Assembly (NCBI GenBank): GCA_965263315.1
Contig: CBDHGZ010000004.1
Span: 489,251-553,250, forward strand
Reading direction: 5' to 3'
DNA: 64,000 nt
DNA from: Lacipirellulaceae bacterium
Lineage (GTDB): Bacteria > Planctomycetota > Planctomycetia > Pirellulales > Lacipirellulaceae
Part shown: positions 1-38,107 of the stretch, piece by piece
How positions within the stretch are numbered: the stretch's first letter is position 1
Layout of the letters: each line of letters begins with the position of its first letter
Program-made: the position numbers and the translations under genes
Notes under the pieces: generated by a model
The model's input: only the letters and a program-made list of their open reading frames with translations
Database searches by the model: none
What the model was told of the DNA's origin: nothing

Positions 1-809
1 CCTTAGATTCGCCAAGCACTGACCTTAGTTGCCCCGCTGTTCCGCGTGCTCGCGTTGTCGGTGTCCCCTTCAACGTTTGCGATTACGAAGACGCAATTTC
101 CTGGCTCGTGGCTTCTGCGGAAAATTCGCGGCAAGATGCTCGCGCCCGTTACGTGTGTGCAGCCAACGTGGCGGACGCGATGAATGCTCGCAAAGACGTT
201 GAGTTTGCTGCCGGCATGGAGGCCAGTGATTTGGTCGTCCCTGACGGCGCTCCTGTCGTGTGGGCGATGCGTTCTGCCGGGCACGCCATCCGCAAACGGG
301 TCTATGGACCCACGCTGATGCAAAAGGCGTTGGAAACAGAGGCGGTTGCTGAGCGCCGGCATGTATTGATCGCCGGGTCTGAGGAGTCCCGCGAAGGGGT
401 TCGGCAACGCTTCCCCCATGTGAACTGGGTTGGCGATCTCGATTTCTGGTTCAACAAGCTCGATGAACAACAGTACTCAAATTTGGCTCAGCGTTATCAA
501 GAGCTGGATCCGGATTACGCCTGGGTTTCGCTTGGCGATGGCAAGCAAGTTCGCTTTATGCATAAGTTTGCTCCGCGCGTGTCGCAGGGCGTATTGCTTG
601 GCGTGGGCGCCGCCTTTGACTTCCATGCTGGCAAGACGCGCCAGGCGCCGCAGTGGATGCAAGACAACGGCATGGAGTGGTTCTTTCGCCTAGCGACCGA
701 GCCACGCCGACTATGGCGCCGCTATCTGCTGCACAATCCTCCGTTCTTGTACCACTGGCTCGCGGAGGTCGTACGTGGCCCCGCCAGACCGGTCGCCATC
801 ACTGACTGA
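1..809 (+). CDS. WecB/TagA/CpsF-family glycosyltransferase (N-acetylmannosaminyltransferase-like); 5' end lies upstream of the window (reading frame open from nt 3)
   Basis: In-frame translation from nt 3 gives ...VVGVPFNVCDYEDAISWL... and later GLEWFFRLATEPRRLWRRYL, typical WecB/TagA/CpsF motifs. There is no start codon inside the window, so the gene is 5' partial. Confidence 0.8.
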   Translation, partial: LDSPSTDLSCPAVPRARVVGVPFNVCDYEDAISWLVASAENSRQDARARYVCAANVADAMNARKDVEFAAGMEASDLVVPDGAPVVWAMRSAGHAIRKRVYGPTLMQKALETEAVAERRHVLIAGSEESREGVRQRFPHVNWVGDLDFWFNKLDEQQYSNLAQRYQELDPDYAWVSLGDGKQVRFMHKFAPRVSQGVLLGVGAAFDFHAGKTRQAPQWMQDNGMEWFFRLATEPRRLWRRYLLHNPPFLYHWLAEVVRGPARPVAITD

Positions 810-887
810 CGGCGACCTGAACCGCTAACGCTGCTCTTCACCTTTTTCAACGAACAAGCGACGGATTGCTGATACCCCTGCAAGACT

Positions 888-1739
888 ATGCCTGCTGACG
901 AATCTCAACTGACTTTTCCTACCGATAGCCCGCTGGCGGGTGACGCCCTCAGCACTTCACCGGGCGAACAACCAGCCGGTGAGCTCTACGAAGCCGCGCG
1001 GCCAAGAGTGATTATCGCCTTGCCGGCTTTCAACGAAGAGGAGTCGCTAGGCCCTTTGCTTGACGGCATTGGTCTGGCGATGGCAGGCTCCGGCATCGAG
1101 TACTCGATCATCGTCGTTGATGATGGCAGCACGGACGACACGGCACGGATCGCCAGCCAAGCATCATTCCGCTTGCCAGTTACATTAATCGAGCACGAGC
1201 AGAATAGCGGCCTAGCCGCGGCACTGCGGACAGGGTTCCAGGCGGCGACTGAGAAAGCGCGTCCTGGGGATGTGATCATCACGATGGACGCCGACAACAC
1301 TCATCCACCGGGGTTGATGCACCGGATGCTGGGGATGGTTGGCGAGGGATGCGACGTCGTCATCGCGTCACGTTTTCAGACCGGCTCTCAAGTCCACGGA
1401 GTGCCTCTTAGTCGCGTATGGCTAAGTGTCGGCGCACGCTGGCTCTTCACCCTCGCGTTTCCGATTCGTGGAGTCCGCGATTACACATGTGGTTTTCGTG
1501 CTTACCGAGCCAGCGTGCTCCAAGATGCCTTGGCTGAGCATGGTGACAACTTCGTCAGCGAGCGCGGCTTCTCTTGCATGGTGGATGTCCTACTCAAGCT
1601 CCGCCTCAGTGACCTCATCATGGCCGAAGCTCCCATGATCCTGCGATACGACCTCAAGGGCGGCGCTAGCAAAATGCGAGTCTTCAAGACGGTCATGCAG
1701 ACTTTGTCTTTGATTGTTCGCAGACGGGTTGGCGGCTGA
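888..1739 (+). CDS. GT2-family glycosyltransferase, Dpm1/ArnC-like polyprenyl-phosphate sugar synthase
   Basis: 283 aa with the GT-A fold signature (VVDDGSTDDT ... ITMDADNTHPP) and the architecture of dolichol-phosphate mannosyltransferase/ArnC homologs. Confidence 0.8.
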   Translation: MPADESQLTFPTDSPLAGDALSTSPGEQPAGELYEAARPRVIIALPAFNEEESLGPLLDGIGLAMAGSGIEYSIIVVDDGSTDDTARIASQASFRLPVTLIEHEQNSGLAAALRTGFQAATEKARPGDVIITMDADNTHPPGLMHRMLGMVGEGCDVVIASRFQTGSQVHGVPLSRVWLSVGARWLFTLAFPIRGVRDYTCGFRAYRASVLQDALAEHGDNFVSERGFSCMVDVLLKLRLSDLIMAEAPMILRYDLKGGASKMRVFKTVMQTLSLIVRRRVGG

Positions 1740-1805
1740 TGCTTTTGTGGATCGCGGCGTGATTCGACAACCCGAGAGACTTCCCTTCAAGGCGGCACAA
1801 TACTG

Positions 1806-3230
1806 ATGCAACAAGAATCACAACAACAGTGGGCGGTCGTTGGTGGCGGCGTCTTGGGTCTGTCGCTCGCCCACCGTTTGGCGAAGCGCGGCGTCCGCGT
1901 CACGCTGTTGGAAGCGGCGCCGGAATTAGGGGGCTTGGCGAGCGCCTGGCGGCTCAAGACGGACCATGACGAAGTCGTCTGGGACCGCCACTATCACGTG
2001 ACCCTATTGTCGGACACGGTGCTCCGAGACTTGCTGGAAGAGATTGGACTGACCGACCACATGCGCTGGGTTGAGACCAAGACCGGTTTCTACAGTGGCG
2101 GTGAGCTGCATTCGATGTCGAACTCGTTGGAGTTCTTGAACTTTCCGCCGCTCACTTTGATTGAGAAGATTCGTTTGGGGATGACGATCTTCTACGCCTC
2201 CCGAATCAAGGACTGGCGACCACTTGAGAAAGTGTCCGTTGCGGATTGGCTTCGTAAGTGGTCCGGCGAAGGAGTCTTTGAAAAGATCTGGCTGCCGTTG
2301 CTTAAGGCAAAACTCGGAGAGACCTACCGAGAGACTTCCGCGGCGTTCATCTGGGCTCATACCAATCGGATGTACAAAGCGCGGCGGTCAGGCCTGAAGA
2401 AAGAGATGTTTGGCTATGTTCGCGGCGGCTACGCCAGCATCTTGGACCGCCTGGCACAGGTGCTTAGTGAGATGGGCGTCGCGGTTCAGTGCTCGGCCCC
2501 CGTGCATGACACCGTGTCCACTGATGAGGGGCGCGTTCTCGTCCAATATGGCGAAGGGCACAGCGCTGAGTTTGATAACGTGGTCTTTACGGTTCCGTCA
2601 CCCGTAATTGCCAATGCCTGCTCTGAGCTGGAAGCTGAGGAGCGTCGCCGACACCAAGAGATCAAATACTTGGGGATCGTCTGTGCTTCGCTATTGTTGA
2701 AGAAACCAATCTCACCTTACTACGTAACCAACATTACGGATACCTGGGTGCCACTGACAGCCGTGATCGAAATGACCACGATTGTGCATCCGAGTGAACT
2801 GGGCGGTCGTTCGCTAGTTTACTTGCCGAAGTACGTGCCTTCGGACGACCCGCTATTCGAAGAGTCTGACGAGAGCTTGCAGGAAAGATGGCTGGGGACG
2901 CTTGAGAAGATGTATCCCCACTTTTCTCGCGACCAAGTAGAAGCTTTTCAGGTGTCGCGGGCCAGGAATGTCATGGCGCTGCCTACTTTGAATTACTCTT
3001 CGAAGCTCCCGCCAATGCGGACGTCGGTCCCTGGAGTGTTTGCTATTAACTCCGCACATATTCTTAAAGGGAATCTGAACGTCAATGAAACGATCGAACT
3101 AGGTTACGAGGCGTTCGACCGTCTGTTGGCGCCGATCATCGACGCAGGCCCTGCGCAGCGGCTTGCTCTCTCCAACATCGACAGGTCTGAGAATGTCGCC
3201 GACGATTGCGAGCTTGTCGCTCGATCTTGA
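1806..3230 (+). CDS. NAD(P)/FAD-dependent oxidoreductase (amine-oxidase / protoporphyrinogen-oxidase-like fold)
   Basis: N-terminal dinucleotide-binding motif VVGGGVLGLSLAHRLAKRGVRVTLLEAAPELGGLASAW in a 474 aa product. Confidence 0.7.
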   Translation: MQQESQQQWAVVGGGVLGLSLAHRLAKRGVRVTLLEAAPELGGLASAWRLKTDHDEVVWDRHYHVTLLSDTVLRDLLEEIGLTDHMRWVETKTGFYSGGELHSMSNSLEFLNFPPLTLIEKIRLGMTIFYASRIKDWRPLEKVSVADWLRKWSGEGVFEKIWLPLLKAKLGETYRETSAAFIWAHTNRMYKARRSGLKKEMFGYVRGGYASILDRLAQVLSEMGVAVQCSAPVHDTVSTDEGRVLVQYGEGHSAEFDNVVFTVPSPVIANACSELEAEERRRHQEIKYLGIVCASLLLKKPISPYYVTNITDTWVPLTAVIEMTTIVHPSELGGRSLVYLPKYVPSDDPLFEESDESLQERWLGTLEKMYPHFSRDQVEAFQVSRARNVMALPTLNYSSKLPPMRTSVPGVFAINSAHILKGNLNVNETIELGYEAFDRLLAPIIDAGPAQRLALSNIDRSENVADDCELVARS

Positions 3231-31199: not shown

Positions 31200-32801
31200 C
31201 TACTTGTCTGCTGGTGGCTTGCTGACCATCGAATCGAGCATCGTCCCGATTAGGGCCGTGGTCTGCGCGTCGCTGCTATCCGACTCGCTGGCGCCTTGGC
31301 CGACAACCATGACGCGTGGCGTGATGCTAATGCCACTGTCGCCAACTACCTTAAGCACTTCGACCAGAGCGGCATTGCCTTTGCCGATTTGCTCGGCAAT
31401 CAGCTGGTAGGCAGCCGCTTGGGCCTCGGCTTGAATACGAACGGCTTCGGCCTCGGCACCCGCCTCGATAATCCGACGCTCTTTGGCTTGCTCAGAGATC
31501 TGCACCGCGTACTTTGCCGTGGCCAGCTTCTTCTCCTCTTCCGCCTCCTGCTCGGTGCGAGTCAGTTCCTTCTTTTGTTCAGCAGCCCGCTGCTGCTCCT
31601 TGAAGGTTTCTTGCTCCTGCAGTGCGATCTCGCGGTCAGTCTGGGTCTTGAGCAAAGGTCCCAGTGTCTTCTCGTCGCCCACGTCGCCAATGCGAACGGC
31701 TGTTACCGTAGCGCCGATCTTTGCCATTTCCTCTCGCAGCATCTTGAGCGACTGGCTCTCCTGTAGCGAACGTTGCTGAACATAATCCAGTGCTTTGACG
31801 CCCTCCGCATTGTTGCGGAAGATCGCGCGCACGGCGCTGTTCATGACCGTCCGGAGGCCTTCTTGGTCGTTCCCGACCGTGGCGACTAATAGCGGGGCAT
31901 TGCCCGGCTCGATTTCATATTCCACACGCACATCGACAGGGAAGGTGTAACCGTCAGACGTGCGGACGACGATTTCGCTTTCTTCGTGTTCGCCACTCTT
32001 GGCGACCGTCGCGTCCGTGTAGCGGACAACCTGTTTTCTGGTCGAGATAACAGTGACTTCGAGCGCTCGGGTGTTGAGGTAGTACTGGTCTGGGCGGAGA
32101 GGATCACGCCAGATGCCACGCTGCCCTTTGGCAACCAAACGACTTAGTCGTCCCTGGGACGCCTGCTCACCGTTAGCAGGCAAGTCTGGTCGTCCGCCCA
32201 CGTTGGACTTGACCACGCCAACGGTTGCCTTATCAATGGTCGTGACGGGAGCCAACTCAACGTTGAATAGCTTGGTGTTGATGCGATACGAACCGGGCTT
32301 CAGGACCGAAGTTTGTGGTCCCTTGTAGCCTCCGCCATCCGTCAGATAGTACTTAGCGTCGTCCAGCATCTGGCGCACTTCGCCTGCTTCCCATTCGGGC
32401 GCGTAAGTGGTGTCTGCAGGCAAGGGCTGGCCATCACGGGCATTGAGTAAGCCCACTTGTCCGGCAGGGATATCGATCAGCGGCTCGAAGTCGATATCGT
32501 AGATCCCGGGCCAATAGCCAGGGTGCCAACCGGGACCAAGAATCTTGGCCTGTGGCCCTTTCTCGCCATTGGTGGCGATGATCTTGCCCGGCGGCAGGGA
32601 TTCCACAGCAATGTTCTTGCTAACCAGCCCGATGCTGTCCTCAGCAACATAGCGGAAGGACGCCAGAGCGAATCCTGCCACAATGGCCAACCCAGCGCAG
32701 GCAGCGGCCGCTACCTGCAACTCCGTGCGAGGCGTCTTCACGGCAGCGTAGAGAAGCAGGCCAGCGAGAACTACTCCCGTGAGTAAGAAGATAGCCGACA
32801 T
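31200..32801 (-). CDS. flotillin-like SPFH/band-7 family protein
   Basis: N-terminal TM segments, SPFH domain, long C-terminal coiled-coil rich in E/A/Q (EQQRAAEQKKELTRTEQEAEEEKKLATAKY...); 533 aa. Confidence 0.75.
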   Translation of the reverse strand: MSAIFLLTGVVLAGLLLYAAVKTPRTELQVAAAACAGLAIVAGFALASFRYVAEDSIGLVSKNIAVESLPPGKIIATNGEKGPQAKILGPGWHPGYWPGIYDIDFEPLIDIPAGQVGLLNARDGQPLPADTTYAPEWEAGEVRQMLDDAKYYLTDGGGYKGPQTSVLKPGSYRINTKLFNVELAPVTTIDKATVGVVKSNVGGRPDLPANGEQASQGRLSRLVAKGQRGIWRDPLRPDQYYLNTRALEVTVISTRKQVVRYTDATVAKSGEHEESEIVVRTSDGYTFPVDVRVEYEIEPGNAPLLVATVGNDQEGLRTVMNSAVRAIFRNNAEGVKALDYVQQRSLQESQSLKMLREEMAKIGATVTAVRIGDVGDEKTLGPLLKTQTDREIALQEQETFKEQQRAAEQKKELTRTEQEAEEEKKLATAKYAVQISEQAKERRIIEAGAEAEAVRIQAEAQAAAYQLIAEQIGKGNAALVEVLKVVGDSGISITPRVMVVGQGASESDSSDAQTTALIGTMLDSMVSKPPADK

Positions 32802-33008
32802 AGGATCGCCTTTTTGTAACGGGGGGCTCGGGGCAAACAGCTCTCGCGAACCTGGCGCTGGGGCCAGGGTCCTACAACCGTACCACCGAAAGCACGGTGA
32901 CGTTGAGAGACCCTTCGCTAAGGCTGGCTCGATCTTGGCCCAGACGTTGACACTTGCCGAGCGCAGGCGTTATTCTCGACACAATTGGCTCAGAATGAGA
33001 CAGGCAGC

Positions 33009-33065
33009 ATGAACGGTCTTCACCCCCGCCGCGAGATCATTATTGTCCGGGATCAACGGTCCTAG
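33009..33065 (+). CDS. candidate 18-aa leader peptide MNGLHPRREIIIVRDQRS (Ile/Val-rich) of a cimA attenuator
   Basis: Small ORF with three consecutive Ile codons plus Val, located 144 nt upstream of cimA and 30 nt upstream of a terminator hairpin. Confidence 0.4.
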   Translation: MNGLHPRREIIIVRDQRS

Positions 33066-33094
33066 GGCACCGCGGCAAAAGAACGTCCAACGCC

Positions 33095-33132
33095 AGCCCT
33101 GAGGCCGATCAAAGCCTCAGGGCGTTTTTGTT
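33095..33132 (+). terminator. intrinsic terminator / attenuator hairpin in the cimA leader
   Basis: 10-bp stem GCCCTGAGGC/GCCTCAGGGC, 8-nt loop, followed by GTTTTTGTTT; lies between the uORF and the cimA start. Confidence 0.55.
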
Positions 33133-33208
33133 TAAAGGCTGTTAGCGGTTTGCCGTTGGCTGATACGGACCCTCGCTAATGGCTCACCGCTAACCGTAGC
33201 AAGCCGCC

Positions 33209-34801
33209 ATGCGCAGCATCGAGATTTACGACACCACGCTCCGAGATGGCGCCCAGGGTGAGGGGGTGAACTTCTCGTTAGAAGACAAAGTGCTGATTGC
33301 ACGTCGGCTTGATGAGCTGGGGTTTGACTACGTGGAGGGTGGCTATCCGCTGTCCAATCCTAAAGATGCCGAGTTCTTCCAGCGAATGGCGGCCGAGCCG
33401 CTGAGGAACAGCAAGGTTTGCGCGTTCGGCATGACCCGCCGCAAGGGCGTGAAGCCGGCGGACGATCCGGGGATGCAAGCGCTGATGGCGAGCGAGGCGC
33501 CCGTTGTGACGATTGTGGGCAAGACCAGCGCGTTTCATGTGGCGGAGGTGCTTCGCGTTAGCGAGCAAGAGAACCTCGACATGATCGCAGAGACTGTGGC
33601 CTATTTTGTCGAGCAGGGACGCGAGGTGATCTACGATGCCGAGCACTTCTTCGACGGTTGGAAACTTGACGCTGCCTACGCCGCCAAAACAATTCAAGCC
33701 GCTGCCGATGCGGGCGCCATTCGCATCGTAATGTGCGACACCAATGGCGGCTCGATGCCGGAGGAAGTGGCCCGAATCACCAAGGAAGCGGCGGCGATTG
33801 TGCAGACGCCGCTAGGCATTCACACGCACAACGACTGCGACTTGTCCGTGGCTAATTCACTAGCAGCGGTCGACGCCGGCGCCGTGCATGTGCAGGGCAC
33901 CATCAATGGCTTGGGCGAAAGGTGTGGCAACGCCGATCTGGTATCAACCGCGGCCAACCTAGCGCTAAAGAAGGAAGGCTACGAAGTCCTCGGTGGCGGC
34001 GCGCAGCAGAATCAAGCTCTGGAGCATCTGACCGAGCTGTCTCGCTATGTCTACGAGATTGCCAACATGAGCTACCGCACGAACCAGGCGTTCGTCGGTC
34101 CCAGCGCCTTCGCCCATAAGGGTGGCATGCATGTGCACGCCATCAATCGTGTAGCGGCCAGCTACGAGCACATTTCGCCCGAGACGATTGGCAACGAGCG
34201 CCGGGTATTGGTCAGCGAGTTATCTGGCCGGTCGAACATCGTGGCCATGGCCACCAAACACAACATTGCGGAAGACAAGCAATTGATGGATGCGATCCTC
34301 CGCGAGGTGGTTGATCGCGAAAACTCGGGCTACCAGTACGAAGCAGCCGAGGCTTCCTTTGCCTTGTTGGTCCGGAAACTAGCTGGCACGTTTACGCCCC
34401 ACTTTGAGCTCGTGAAGTTCCATGCGGAGGTCGAAAGCCGCGGTGGCCAGCCGGTGACCGAGTCGACCGTCAAGTTGCTCGTCGCCGACGAAGTCCGCCA
34501 TGAAGTGGCCGAGGGCGATGGTCCCGTGAACGCGCTGGACGCCGCTTTGCGAAAGGCCCTCAATGGCCACTTCCCGGCGCTCGATCAGATGCAATTGGTT
34601 GACTACAAGGTCCGCGTCGTCAACTCCGAAGCCGCCACGGCCGCCAAGGTCCGCGTGGTAATCGAAACCCGCGACGCCGATGGCGAAGTCTGGGGCGCCG
34701 TGGGCGTCGATGAAAACATCATCCAGGCCAGCTGGGAAGCGCTGGTCGACAGCTTCGAATACAAACTCTGCAAACAAGAGGGGCTTGGGACCACGGCCTA
34801 G
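33209..34801 (+). CDS. cimA: (R)-citramalate synthase / 2-isopropylmalate synthase family (530 aa, CimA-type with C-terminal regulatory domain)
   Basis: N-terminal DRE-TIM barrel motifs (IYDTTLRDGAQGEGV, HTHNDCDLSVANSLAAV) and the LeuA-dimer C-terminal domain. Length and architecture fit citramalate synthase (TIGR00977-like). Confidence 0.75.
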   Translation: MRSIEIYDTTLRDGAQGEGVNFSLEDKVLIARRLDELGFDYVEGGYPLSNPKDAEFFQRMAAEPLRNSKVCAFGMTRRKGVKPADDPGMQALMASEAPVVTIVGKTSAFHVAEVLRVSEQENLDMIAETVAYFVEQGREVIYDAEHFFDGWKLDAAYAAKTIQAAADAGAIRIVMCDTNGGSMPEEVARITKEAAAIVQTPLGIHTHNDCDLSVANSLAAVDAGAVHVQGTINGLGERCGNADLVSTAANLALKKEGYEVLGGGAQQNQALEHLTELSRYVYEIANMSYRTNQAFVGPSAFAHKGGMHVHAINRVAASYEHISPETIGNERRVLVSELSGRSNIVAMATKHNIAEDKQLMDAILREVVDRENSGYQYEAAEASFALLVRKLAGTFTPHFELVKFHAEVESRGGQPVTESTVKLLVADEVRHEVAEGDGPVNALDAALRKALNGHFPALDQMQLVDYKVRVVNSEAATAAKVRVVIETRDADGEVWGAVGVDENIIQASWEALVDSFEYKLCKQEGLGTTA

Positions 34802-34906
34802 GGGCCCGGGCTTCTCAGCCCTGGCCACCCTGCAAGCGAACCCCTGCTTCCTGGTATCTTGTTTGGCTCTTGGAAGACTCCGTGCCCTCTGTGATGCCGT
34901 GGTGCT

Positions 34907-37900
34907 ATGCCCCCGACCGACCTCGCCAGCTTACCTGCTCAGTACGATCACGCCGCCGCTCAGGCGAAGTGGTACAGCTTTTGGGAATCAAACGGCTATT
35001 TCCACGCAGACGCCAAGAGCGACAAGCCACCGTTCACAATCGTTATCCCGCCGCCGAACGTGACCGGCGCGCTTCATCTGGGACACGCCCTGAACAACAC
35101 GCTGCAGGATATTCTTTGCCGCATGAAGCGGATGCAGGGTTTTAATGTTTTGTGGCAGCCCGGCACCGACCACGCCGGGATTGCGACGCAGGCCCGCGTT
35201 GAGAAAAGGCTGCTGGAGACCGAGGGTAAATCGCGTCACGACCTGGGCCGCGAGGGCCTGGTCGACCGCATCTGGCAGTGGAAAGACCAGTACGAAGCCC
35301 GCATCACCGGTCAGCTCAAGCAGCTTGGTTGTTCTTGCGATTGGGAGCGACAACGGTTCACGCTGGACGATCAGTGCGCCCGGGCCGTGCGGGAGACGTT
35401 CTTCAAGCTCTTCGCCGACGGGAAGATCTACCGCGGCAAGCGACTGGTTAACTGGGACACCTACCTGCAAACGGCCGTCAGCGACGACGAGGTGTTCCAC
35501 GAGGAGAAGAAGGGCCACTTCTGGCATTTTCATTACCCGGTCGTTGATCCGCAGCCGGGCGAGCCGACGTCCGTCGAGATCGCTACCACCCGGCCCGAGA
35601 CGATGCTCGGTGACACCGCCGTGGCGGTGCATCCCGACCCCGCCAAGCAACTCGCCAAGGTCGAAGCGGAGTTGAAGGAAAAACTCGCGGCGGCGAAGGA
35701 GAACGAACGTGAGCCGATTGAGAAGCAGCTCGAAGCGCTCGCCGAGCGGCGCACCACGATGCTGCCGAAGCTTGAACAGTTACGCGACATGGCCGCGCGG
35801 GGCGTGAAGCTCCAACTGCCGCTGTGCGATCGCGAGATCCCGCTCATCGCCGACATCTGGGCCAAGCCAGAACTCGGCTCGGGCTGCGTGAAGATCACCC
35901 CCGCGCACGACGCCAACGACTACGAGGTTTGGCAGCGCACCGTCAATGGGGACGGGGCTGACATCGGCGCGATTAACATCATGAACGCCGACGGCACGCT
36001 GAACGACACCGTGCCGGAGGCGTTCCGCGGCCTGACGATGAAGAAGGCCCGCACGGCAGTAATCGAAGCGCTGGAGGCCTGCGGCGCACACGATCCGGAG
36101 TCCGATGTCGAAGACCGCGTGATCGACCTTGCCCACAGCGACCGGTCGAAGACGCCGATCGAGCCGTACCTGGCCGACCAGTGGTTCGTGAAGATGGATG
36201 AGTTGGCCCAGTCCGCGATGGACGCCGTGACCAGTGGCAAGGTGAAGATCACACCGGAACGTTACACGAAGACTTACCTCGACTGGCTCAGCGAAAAACG
36301 CGATTGGCCCGTCGGTCGCCAGTTGTGGTGGGGGCATCGGATTCCGATTTGGAGTGAGGGTGACTACCCAGAAGGAAAGCAAGTAGCTGACGAGCAAGCG
36401 TCAATTGGGCGCGAAGAAGCCTTCATTCGGCAGATGAATTCTTGGGAAGAATCGGGTCGCATTGCGGTCAGGTCTCGCCAAGGGTCATTGAAACAGAAAG
36501 TTGATGAGCAGCGATTACGTCAGGTGCTAGTGTGCGTCCGCGATGAAGCGGATATGGAAGTGGTTAGACGATTGTCCGAGCACGGCTTCAAGCAAGACGA
36601 AGAGGTCCTCGACACTTGGTTCAGCTCCGCCCTCTGGCCGTTCTCCACGCTTGGCTGGCCGGAGTCGACCGAGGAACTCAAGACCTTCTACCCGACCAGC
36701 GTACTGATCACTTCGCGGGACATCATCACACTGTGGGTCGCGCGGATGGTGTTGATGGGGCTCTACAACAAGCCTCTCGGTGACGACGGGGACGCGATTC
36801 CTTTCCCGGAGGTCTACATCCACCCCAAGATTCTCGACGGCTTCGGCGAAACGATGAGCAAGTCGAAGGGGAACGGCGTCGACCCGCTCGACGTGATCGA
36901 CAAGTTCGGGGCCGACGCCCTGCGGTTCGGCATCGCGTACCTGACGACCGAAACGCAGGACGTGCGGATGCCGGTGGAGTTCGTCTGCCCGCACTGCGAC
37001 GCGACGATCAAGCAGACGAAGAAGAACCGCATCTTGCCGCTGGTGGAGTGCGACAAGTGCCAGCAGCCCTTCAGCACGCAGTGGGCGGAGACCGAGGAGG
37101 AGAAGTCGCACGCCCGCGGCGCCGTGACCAGCGAGCGGTTTGAGCTGGGCCGAAACTTCTGCAACAAACTGTGGAACGCCAGCCGATTCGCGTTAACCAA
37201 TCTTGAGGGCTACCAGCCGGCGGCGATCGCCGCCAACGACTTGCGGATCGAAGACCGCTGGCTGTTGTCTCGGTTGGCGACCGTGACGCGCGAGGTGACC
37301 GAAGCGCTGGAAACGTACCGCTATGCCGATGCGGCCCGCACGCTGTACGACTTCGCCTGGAACGAGTTCTGTAGCTTCTACGTCGAGATGACGAAGGCCC
37401 GATTCAGCGAGGCGGGCGCCGACAAGCAAGTCGCCCAGGCGGTGCTGGCCCACGCACTCGATACGCTCCTGCGGCTGCTGCACCCGATGACGCCGTTCTT
37501 GACCGAAGAGGTTTGGCAGTTGTTGGGCGAAGTGGCGCCTGTGAGAGGCTTCGAGCCAGCGGCCTCGCCCGCGGTCGAGTCCGTGTGCGTGGCTGCTTGG
37601 CCAGAGGTTAGCACGGCAGACTCGGACGCGTCCATCGAAGCACAGTTTGCCAGTTTTCAGGCCGTGTTGGGCGTCGTCCGCGAGGTTCGCCAAGGTCAGG
37701 GGATTCCTTGGACAGAAACCCTGGAGTTTGCCGTCAAGTGCGATGCCGAGACGGCCACGCTGCTAGAGCCGATGACCCCGTACTTCGCACAAATGGCCAA
37801 GGCGACTCCCACGGCGATGGGCCCCGCGGCTACGGCGCCCGATGTAACGGTTAGCAAACCGGCCGCCGGTGGCGAGGTGCATGTGGACGTCAGCCAGTTC

Positions 37901-38107
37901 ATCGATGTCGACGCGGAGATCAAGCGGCTCACCAAGGAACGCGACCAAAAAGCCAAGTTCGTCAAAGGCCTGGAAGGCAAGCTGGCGAACGACAAGTTCG
38001 TGGCCAACGCTCCGGCGGAGGTCGTCGAGCAAGAGCGCGGCAAGCTTGCCGACGCACAGCAAGCGATTGCCGCGCTCGATGCATCGTTGGCAAAACTCTC
38101 CGGTTGA
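34907..38107 (+). CDS. valS: valine--tRNA ligase
   Basis: 1066 aa; HIGH-region (PPPNVTGALHLGHALN), KMSKS (ETMSKSKGNG), editing domain and C-terminal coiled-coil. Confidence 0.9.
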   Translation: MPPTDLASLPAQYDHAAAQAKWYSFWESNGYFHADAKSDKPPFTIVIPPPNVTGALHLGHALNNTLQDILCRMKRMQGFNVLWQPGTDHAGIATQARVEKRLLETEGKSRHDLGREGLVDRIWQWKDQYEARITGQLKQLGCSCDWERQRFTLDDQCARAVRETFFKLFADGKIYRGKRLVNWDTYLQTAVSDDEVFHEEKKGHFWHFHYPVVDPQPGEPTSVEIATTRPETMLGDTAVAVHPDPAKQLAKVEAELKEKLAAAKENEREPIEKQLEALAERRTTMLPKLEQLRDMAARGVKLQLPLCDREIPLIADIWAKPELGSGCVKITPAHDANDYEVWQRTVNGDGADIGAINIMNADGTLNDTVPEAFRGLTMKKARTAVIEALEACGAHDPESDVEDRVIDLAHSDRSKTPIEPYLADQWFVKMDELAQSAMDAVTSGKVKITPERYTKTYLDWLSEKRDWPVGRQLWWGHRIPIWSEGDYPEGKQVADEQASIGREEAFIRQMNSWEESGRIAVRSRQGSLKQKVDEQRLRQVLVCVRDEADMEVVRRLSEHGFKQDEEVLDTWFSSALWPFSTLGWPESTEELKTFYPTSVLITSRDIITLWVARMVLMGLYNKPLGDDGDAIPFPEVYIHPKILDGFGETMSKSKGNGVDPLDVIDKFGADALRFGIAYLTTETQDVRMPVEFVCPHCDATIKQTKKNRILPLVECDKCQQPFSTQWAETEEEKSHARGAVTSERFELGRNFCNKLWNASRFALTNLEGYQPAAIAANDLRIEDRWLLSRLATVTREVTEALETYRYADAARTLYDFAWNEFCSFYVEMTKARFSEAGADKQVAQAVLAHALDTLLRLLHPMTPFLTEEVWQLLGEVAPVRGFEPAASPAVESVCVAAWPEVSTADSDASIEAQFASFQAVLGVVREVRQGQGIPWTETLEFAVKCDAETATLLEPMTPYFAQMAKATPTAMGPAATAPDVTVSKPAAGGEVHVDVSQFIDVDAEIKRLTKERDQKAKFVKGLEGKLANDKFVANAPAEVVEQERGKLADAQQAIAALDASLAKLSG

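Follow-up and report, generated by a model that had tools for sequence, protein, structure and literature searches.

We find that the leader of the citramalate synthase gene (cimA) in this Lacipirellulaceae bacterium is very likely a classical ribosome-mediated attenuator, which would sense charged tRNA-Ile, and probably charged tRNA-Val, and gate the expression of cimA and, very probably, of a co-transcribed valine--tRNA ligase gene (valS). An Ile-responsive leader-peptide attenuator had been suggested here by a sequence-only reading, and this suggestion is supported by the alternative pairing of the leader RNA, by its conservation among relatives, by a constraint on the reading frame of the leader peptide, and by a Leu-rich twin of the element located 5' of leuA. 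All positions given below refer to the window, i.e. the whole stretch of 64,000 nt that was analyzed, and the features described are on its forward (+) strand unless stated otherwise.

The source locus shows the traits of a classical attenuator—i.e. a short ORF downstream of a promoter, with a start and an in-frame stop, followed by a terminator that precedes a biosynthetic gene. A putative sigma70-type promoter (32947–32976) combines a -35 element (TTGACA), a spacer of 18 nt, and a -10 element (TATTCT), and the ATG of an upstream ORF (uORF) lies 32 nt past the latter. This uORF (33009–33065) encodes the predicted leader peptide MNGLHPRREIIIVRDQRS, with 18 codons followed by a TAG stop at 33063–33065. 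Its regulatory codons (33036–33047) are ATC ATT ATT, i.e. three Ile codons (33036–33044), then GTC (Val). Among all leaders seen this is the shortest, with an Ile content of just three and a single Val. The terminator hairpin formed by GCCCTGAGGC and GCCTCAGGGC (33096–33123) starts exactly 30 nt past the uORF stop, and it has 10 bp (8 of them G-C), a loop of 8 nt, and GTTTTTGTTT immediately after it. Its predicted fold has an energy of -22.3 kcal/mol (z = -4.8), and none of 200 shuffled sequences folds as well. As such, the 18-codon uORF with three Ile codons and Val, the strong GC-rich hairpin of 10 bp with its U-tract 30 nt farther on, and the presence of cimA downstream, all of which had been read from the sequence alone, are borne out. 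Specifically, the downstream ORF (33209–34801, 530 aa) matches the (R)-citramalate synthase model TIGR00977 with 623.6 bits (cutoff 450).

The leader can be divided into segments with alternative partners. Segment A (segment 2; 33058–33069, GGTCCTAGGGCA) includes the uORF stop codon, is the predicted 5' strand of an antiterminator, and resembles the 3' arm of the terminator. Segment B (segment 3; 33096–33106, GCCCTGAGGCC) is the terminator 5' arm and the alternative partner of A, segment C (segment 4; 33114–33123, GCCTCAGGGC) is the terminator 3' arm, and the U-tract (33124–33133, GTTTTTGTTT) is the predicted site of intrinsic termination. Segment 1 (33044–33054, UGUCCGGGAUC) is a partner of segment A in the source locus, where it is possibly an anti-antiterminator or pause-hairpin strand. 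Two simpler origins of the hairpin are ruled out: it is not the terminator of the upstream gene, as the upstream ORF (31200–32801) is on the opposite strand and divergent, and it is not a generic repeated terminator or REP-like element, being present as a single copy per locus and as a single copy in the 64-kb window.

For comparison, we used 80 cimA loci from Pirellulales records, taken as one genome per species, in which CimA identity ranges from 65 to 81%. Most of these loci carry a near-identical terminator stem 5' of cimA (CCCTGAGGCC...GGCCTCRGGG followed by a T-run). A covariance model (R1), built from 43 Pirellulales cimA loci, detects a single element per locus, always 5' of cimA, in ~50 of the 80 (about two thirds), and has exactly one match in the 64-kb window (33035–33131; 73.6 bits, E = 3.7e-14). 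A scan of metagenome contigs with a pattern made only of A, B, C, and the T-run—i.e. with neither Ile codons nor cimA specified—returned 51 further loci, ~44 of which have a CimA homolog 20–250 nt downstream.

The order of the elements is constant among these loci, with a sigma70-like promoter, the uORF, segment A overlapping the stop codon, segment B, segment C, and a U-run. A promoter of the form TTGACN-N16-19-TANNNT is located within 230 nt upstream in 43 of 53 related loci compared with 40 of 2650 background windows (1.5%), and the first in-frame ATG is usually found 26–47 nt past the -10 element. Segment A has the consensus CGGCCNTARGGGC, stop codon included, and resembles C, both being complementary to B; arm B (GCCCTGAGGCC) is nearly invariant between loci, and the linker that joins A and B is variable and measures ~25 nt. 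The leader uORF of the relatives ends ~30 nt before the terminator and contains runs such as IVIIVA, GIIIIAEDRP, and AIVIIPQEVRP. A GGAG motif is conserved 8 nt before segment A, and may help to park a ribosome on the stop codon.

The element is missing from about a third of the cimA loci, including those of Botrimarina, Adhaeretor, Bythopirellula polymerisocia, and MAGs labelled Kuenenia. It is also missing from 3 close relatives of the source (L008, L012, and L013) though these have the same divergent flanking gene, and it has therefore been lost repeatedly or is dispensable.

The gene that follows cimA in the source locus is valS (34907–38107), which matches the valine--tRNA ligase model NF004349 with 1019 bits and is separated from cimA by a gap of 105 nt with no terminator-like site. 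Among the 80 loci, valS is the next gene after cimA on the same strand in 70, with gaps mostly of 0–250 nt and some overlaps, and a terminator-like site lies between the genes in only 6 of 68 loci, mostly where the gap is long. Because the adjacency is conserved and there are almost no terminators between the two genes, the regulated unit is probably a cimA-valS operon. The control of cimA suggested by the earlier reading is supported, with two amendments: the regulation probably extends over both cimA and valS, and the leaders are enriched in Val as well as Ile codons. Leader-peptide attenuation of an aminoacyl-tRNA synthetase operon is known from E. coli, where pheM precedes pheST. By analogy, an operon with valS would explain the Val co-enrichment, since the Val codons would tie ValRS synthesis to the charging of tRNA-Val if valS is co-transcribed. 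Unlike in pheM-pheST, the synthetase gene here comes second, and the gene ahead of it serves the biosynthesis of another amino acid; we infer the control of valS only from the conserved adjacency and the lack of terminators between the two genes.

The hairpin itself is strongly constrained. In all related loci the stem is GC-rich and 10–14 bp long, with a short loop and 6–9 U immediately after it, and the terminator energies of the 43 folded loci range from -17 to -30 kcal/mol. The B:C helix is 93.7% paired across 43 sequences with 24 double-change cells, a result reached by none of 500 shuffles. The hairpin thus shows every canonical feature of an intrinsic terminator in all loci, which argues against an explanation that we consider improbable, namely that the uORF senses Ile but acts mainly post-transcriptionally—i.e. 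through re-initiation, mRNA stability, or Rho access—with the hairpin serving a structural or processing role. This explanation would agree with the proposal that leader ORFs near genes raise translation through re-initiation, Planctomycetes included, where such ORFs close to genes appear merely as a statistical peak (PMC4833913), and it gains from intrinsic termination being uncharacterized in Planctomycetota. For re-initiation, however, the distances are unfavorable. The uORF stop is 143 nt from the cimA start in the source locus, far above the typical 10–15 nt, and in other loci the distance from stop to cimA ranges from ~90 to >500 nt when cimA is the next gene and reaches ~2 kb with a TPR gene in between.

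Attenuation by alternative pairing is supported by the behavior of segment B. When the source locus is folded without arm C, B pairs with the stop-codon segment A, and the resulting antiterminator has a predicted energy of -22.0 kcal/mol vs -22.3 kcal/mol for the terminator, including an extension of GATC at 33107–33110 with GATC at 33051–33054. Taken alone, the source-locus antiterminator is not more stable than those of shuffled sequences (z = -1.4). All 43 loci show the same B:A pairing once C is removed from the fold, with energies of -16 to -32 kcal/mol, and several loci carry compensatory variants. For example, B reads GAAGCCC where A reads GGGCTT (L037 and L056), GACGCC where A reads GGCGT (L058 and L079), and ..GGTC where A reads GACC or GATC (L034, L046, and L073). 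Among these carriers, L058 is the cultured Bremerella cremea JCM 17758 and L079 is the cultured Bremerella sp. JC770.

A column-wise count of A:B pairs on the model-fitted alignment A2 did not separate the helix from shuffles; this count is uninformative because the helix is highly conserved and there is a register shift between TAGGG and TAAGGG. The A:B pairing was assessed instead by folding each locus and by a permutation test on duplex energies that is free of register. The mean energy of native A:B duplexes is -17.5 kcal/mol compared with -15.7 kcal/mol for cross-locus duplexes, and none of 2000 permutations equals the native value; random upstream 19-mers paired with B have a mean of -6.9 kcal/mol. 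A mutually exclusive antiterminator, in which the terminator 5' arm pairs with the stop-codon segment, is thus present.

The pairing of segment 1 with segment A is not a conserved feature. In the source locus, the 1:2 hairpin (33044–33054 with 33058–33069) has a predicted energy of -11.1 kcal/mol, with a marginal z-score of -2.0. Across 53 loci, a conserved 1:2 hairpin was sought and not found, with fold z-scores of ~0, and segment A is substantially paired with upstream sequence in 27 of the 53. As such, the predicted four-segment layout is proposed for the source locus only and not for the family. Because the 1:2 hairpin is not conserved, most members would act as three-strand switches that read through, and do not terminate, when the leader is left untranslated.

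The reading frame of the leader is tied to the RNA structure. A pair of Ile codons (ATHATH) is located within 50 nt upstream of segment A in 41 of 53 loci vs 4.4% of background windows, and its distance to A equals 1 modulo 3 in all 41, where chance would give one third. The last Ile codon is separated from A by a modal distance of 10–13 nt (13 nt in the source locus). In 36 of the 41 loci, this frame first meets the conserved stop within A, and in the other five its first stop lies 2–5 nt before A. Composition is also biased: the 14 codons before A include 23% Ile, 16.8% Val, and 2.7% Leu compared with 4.6%, 9.6%, and 8.6%, respectively, in CimA, and this Ile/Val enrichment is confined to the leader frame, the other two frames showing nothing similar. 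Among Ile codons, ATT accounts for 72% in the leaders vs 22% in cimA, where it is a minor codon. The metagenome leaders, which were found without specifying Ile codons, have II within the last 16 residues in 42 of 46 unique sequences, and their Ile, Val, and Leu contents are 20%, 17%, and 1.8%. Orthologous cimA leaders thus keep both the uORF and its Ile run, always in one frame and with a constant spacing to the antiterminator strand.

A C-terminal Arg-Pro of the leader peptides was considered as a TnaC-like peptide stalling motif and rejected. The dipeptide is lost in every locus where A has shifted away from the stop codon (it is gone in L003, L006, L007, L043, L049, L069, and L073), and the source locus has Arg-Ser. 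It is more simply explained by the RNA, because the constraint CGGCCN-TAR-GGG dictates the peptide tail.

The amino acid encoded in the leader also changes with the downstream gene. Two metagenome matches precede a canonical 2-isopropylmalate synthase gene instead of cimA, with a Leu-rich leader in one of the two (L103). Pirellulales leuA loci were then gathered by protein search and contig look-ups, and all those retrieved carry the same scaffold 5' of leuA, as R1 matches, for a total of nine independent loci. The leaders of these nine loci contain 41% Leu, 3.5% Ile, and 1.4% Val—for example MHQNLLLPLLLLLLADDRP, MALLNLLPYLLLLLVLGRP, and ...LALLLLLELRL—with runs of Leu codons located before the terminator that include the rare CTA, TTA, and CTT. 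A search of the 64-kb window for leuA found no such gene there. Regulatory codons that change in step with the end product of the downstream gene, while the RNA scaffold remains homologous, are a hallmark of leader-peptide attenuation, and this comparison with leuA extends beyond the checks that the earlier reading had suggested. Furthermore, because the frame relation is strict, the Ile enrichment is specific to one frame, and Ile is exchanged for Leu, the translation of the uORF must be under selection.

These data also bear on whether the promoter, the uORF, and its terminator are a small gene in their own right, encoding a hydrophobic micro-protein or sRNA, with cimA expressed from a separate promoter. 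The leader peptides are indeed hydrophobic, like small membrane peptides, the transcript would be short and ended by a strong terminator, and the source locus has 76 nt, with another hairpin, between the U-tract and cimA. However, the peptide sequence is not conserved beyond its Ile/Val content and the tail set by segment A, its composition turns Leu-rich when leuA is downstream, and a small gene has no need for a stop codon placed inside a strand that covaries with the terminator 5' arm. The element is always directly 5', on the same strand, of cimA, leuA, or an operon with cimA as its last gene, and in many loci the distance from U-tract to start codon is 20–60 nt, which leaves no room for a second promoter. 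We therefore regard an independent small gene as very improbable.

Equally hard to sustain is a switch that is set by a trans-acting factor—i.e. uncharged tRNA as in a T-box, a riboswitch metabolite, or an RNA-binding protein—with the uORF being incidental. Such mechanisms would all involve a conserved terminator/antiterminator pair, and leuA of Geobacter is controlled by a T-box leader (PMC2700814). Against it, Rfam scans of the source leader (E up to 10) and of five related loci (E up to 1) returned only lncRNA and miRNA noise. In these scans, neither the T-box model nor riboswitches or other Rfam families matched, and there was also no match to Leu_leader, Thr_leader, His_leader, Trp_leader, ilvB-OMG, leu/phe leader, or other leader models. 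The source leader RNA is ~125 nt from ATG to U-tract with no conserved aptamer-like domain, and among relatives there is little conservation of the RNA beyond A, B, and C, and no aptamer of appreciable size. The frame relation (41 of 41 distances), the frame-specific Ile enrichment, and the exchange of Ile for Leu all speak for a role of the uORF itself. The Pirellulales element resembles the Geobacter leuA T-box in that tRNA charging would set a choice between terminator and antiterminator before a gene of the isopropylmalate/citramalate synthase family, but unlike a T-box, which binds uncharged tRNA directly and requires no translation, its frame constraint shows that the ribosome is involved.

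That a short ORF and a hairpin resembling a terminator came to lie together by chance in an intergenic region has a negligible probability: short ORFs are frequent, a scan of 5 kb has 7 terminator-like sites vs 4.3 expected, and the source uORF, taken alone, could be due to chance, but the whole arrangement is kept in ~100 other, independent loci with statistics far from background.

Leader-peptide attenuators of branched-chain amino acid genes are well known in E. coli and Salmonella, and include ilvL (ilvGMEDA) and ivbL (ilvBN). These enterobacterial systems have been reviewed (Salmon, Yang & Hatfield, EcoSal Plus 2006, as cited in PMC10272879). Like ilvL and ivbL, the Pirellulales cimA leaders contain a short ORF rich in branched-chain codons, the terminator 5' arm has an alternative partner upstream, a stall at the regulatory codons would favor the antiterminator, and the response would be multivalent (Ile and Val here). 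Unlike ilvL and ivbL, to which they have no sequence or Rfam relationship, their targets are cimA, i.e. the pyruvate route to Ile, and valS instead of ilv genes, their stop codon is inside the antiterminator strand, and most members have no conserved 1:2 hairpin. Leu codons are depleted in the cimA leaders, in contrast to ilvL, which is rich in Leu, Val, and Ile.

The leuA twin follows the logic of the enterobacterial leuL (Rfam Leu_leader), with runs of Leu codons before a terminator, and classical attenuators of leuA and ilvB have been predicted in Actinobacteria (Seliverstov et al. 2005, PMC1262725). Unlike these, the Pirellulales elements belong to another phylum, have unrelated A, B, and C sequences with no Rfam match, and use one scaffold for both Ile and Leu versions. 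They also resemble the ilvB-II, ilvB-OMG, and ilvB motifs, including the uORF motif of Corynebacterium ilvB-II (PMC10272879), in that a conserved RNA motif is associated with a uORF whose start is in frame with its stop and whose branched-chain residues are enriched. In the open-access full texts, a body of literature that does not include the survey of Lopatovskaya et al. (2010), we came across no account of leader-peptide attenuation in planctomycetes or 5' of cimA. Within this open-access literature, the earlier statement that attenuation is undocumented in Planctomycetota thus holds.

In the attenuator that we propose, transcription would start from the promoter at 32947–32976, and a ribosome would translate the 18-codon leader behind the advancing RNA polymerase. 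With plentiful Ile-tRNA, the ribosome would reach the TAG stop and cover segment A (33058–33069), so that B:C forms and transcription stops in the U-tract. With scarce Ile-tRNA, the ribosome would stall on ATC-ATT-ATT (33036–33044), with its leading edge ~10 nt farther on and just short of A; in the source locus the stalled ribosome would also mask segment 1, leaving A free for B. The A:B antiterminator would then form first, the terminator would be pre-empted, and cimA-valS would be transcribed. If the leader of the source locus is not translated, the 1:2 hairpin would sequester A, as in the textbook four-segment design.

The footprint of a ribosome extends ~10 nt beyond its A-site codon. The geometry of the loci fits such a stall: the last Ile codon is located 10–13 nt from A in most of them, and the stop codon of all 41 loci with an Ile pair either falls within A or precedes it by at most 5 nt. 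The sequence parts, the alternative pairings with their conservation and covariation, the frame constraint, the codon enrichment, and the exchange of Ile for Leu are observed, whereas we infer the footprint geometry, the coupling of transcription and translation, the response of the cells, and that transcription does end in the U-tract.

To our knowledge, gene regulation in Planctomycetota is almost unexplored. On balance, we favor the view that the elements described here represent an undescribed, order-wide family of modular leader-peptide attenuators in Pirellulales, built on a single scaffold with an Ile/Val version for cimA-valS and a Leu version for leuA, and that they would provide direct genomic evidence of tight transcription-translation coupling, because the mechanism needs a ribosome within about 30–60 nt of RNA polymerase. 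Ribosome-mediated attenuation would then extend to a further phylum, Planctomycetota (order Pirellulales), with citramalate synthase, and probably also valS, as a new target. Spatially separated transcription and translation has been claimed for Gemmata, and this claim is debated (Gottshall et al. 2014, as discussed in PMC6212462). Tight coupling in Pirellulales, if true, bears on that claim, with Gemmata belonging to a different order. That about two thirds of the Pirellulales cimA loci have kept an element that would work only with translation close behind transcription speaks for coupling as the usual state of these cells.

The occurrence of Ile and Leu versions on one scaffold is a natural specificity-swap experiment, and the scaffold offers a compact, amino-acid-responsive switch for planctomycete genetics. 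For the physiology of these organisms, the presence of the element indicates that the citramalate route is regulated, and hence is probably their main entry into isoleucine. If the proposed attenuation is true, both the pyruvate route to isoleucine and the synthesis of ValRS would be coupled to tRNA charging.

In the window, valS, encoding valine--tRNA ligase (34907-38107), lies directly 3' of cimA on the same strand, separated from it by an intergenic gap at 34802-34906. The same succession of cimA and valS, adjacent and on one strand, is found in 70 of 80 Pirellulales loci (observed in the window and across L002-L079). The spacing between the two genes in these Pirellulales loci is mostly 0-250 nt, with the genes overlapping in some cases, and terminator-like sites between them are nearly lacking. 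cimA-valS looks like a conserved operon, and such an operon may explain the Val codons of the leader.

The Ile codons of the leaders also have a composition of their own. Across the leader frames of the window and L001-L080, ATT accounts for 72% of Ile codons and ATC for 26%, while the preference is reversed in cimA (22% ATT and 76% ATC). The ATT preference may have been selected, either to slow decoding through wobble or to keep structure weak where the sensing codons lie. Upstream of Pirellulales leuA (2-isopropylmalate synthase), a homologous attenuator scaffold is present with Leu-rich leader peptides (loci L103, L087, L134, L135, and L137-L143). These peptides are 41% Leu, with Leu runs of up to 6, and rare Leu codons (e.g. 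CTA, TTA, and CTT) are numerous in their leaders.

Part of the leaders upstream of cimA also carry a GGAG motif at a constant offset, its first G 8 nt 5' of segment A, the antiterminator strand overlapping the uORF stop (e.g. the Pirellulales loci L032, L061, L057, and L053, and the metagenome loci L081-L131). The motif forms the Glu codon four codons ahead of this stop. Among genome leaders 22 of 53 have it, and among metagenome leaders 35 of 50, compared with a background of 3.7%. It is not present in the window's leader, nor in the leuA leaders. GGAG resembles a Shine-Dalgarno sequence and may keep the ribosome on segment A as it terminates.

Between the attenuator U-tract and the cimA start codon, the window contains a second stable hairpin of 9 + 9 + 2 bp (33141-33194; folding energy -29 to -34 kcal/mol, with z = -2.6), which occurs only once within the window. 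In one sub-lineage (L014 at 645-3000, L015, L027, L099, L118, and L083), the gene next after the Ile leader and terminator encodes a membrane protein of ~750 aa with TPR repeats at its C-terminal end, and cimA is not reached until ~2 kb further downstream. This gene is either an insertion into the attenuated operon or itself Ile-controlled. Separately, the cimA upstream region of L012, a MAG with no attenuator, has a long imperfect inverted repeat at ~2900-2994 (units GGGTTCAGGG and CCCTGAACCC).

Despite their close kinship to the window, L008, L011, L012, and L013 have no leader and no terminator upstream of cimA, yet they keep the window's divergent 533-aa upstream ORF at 65-70% identity. 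The comparison points to the attenuator having been lost, or gained, recently among Lacipirellulaceae-like genomes.
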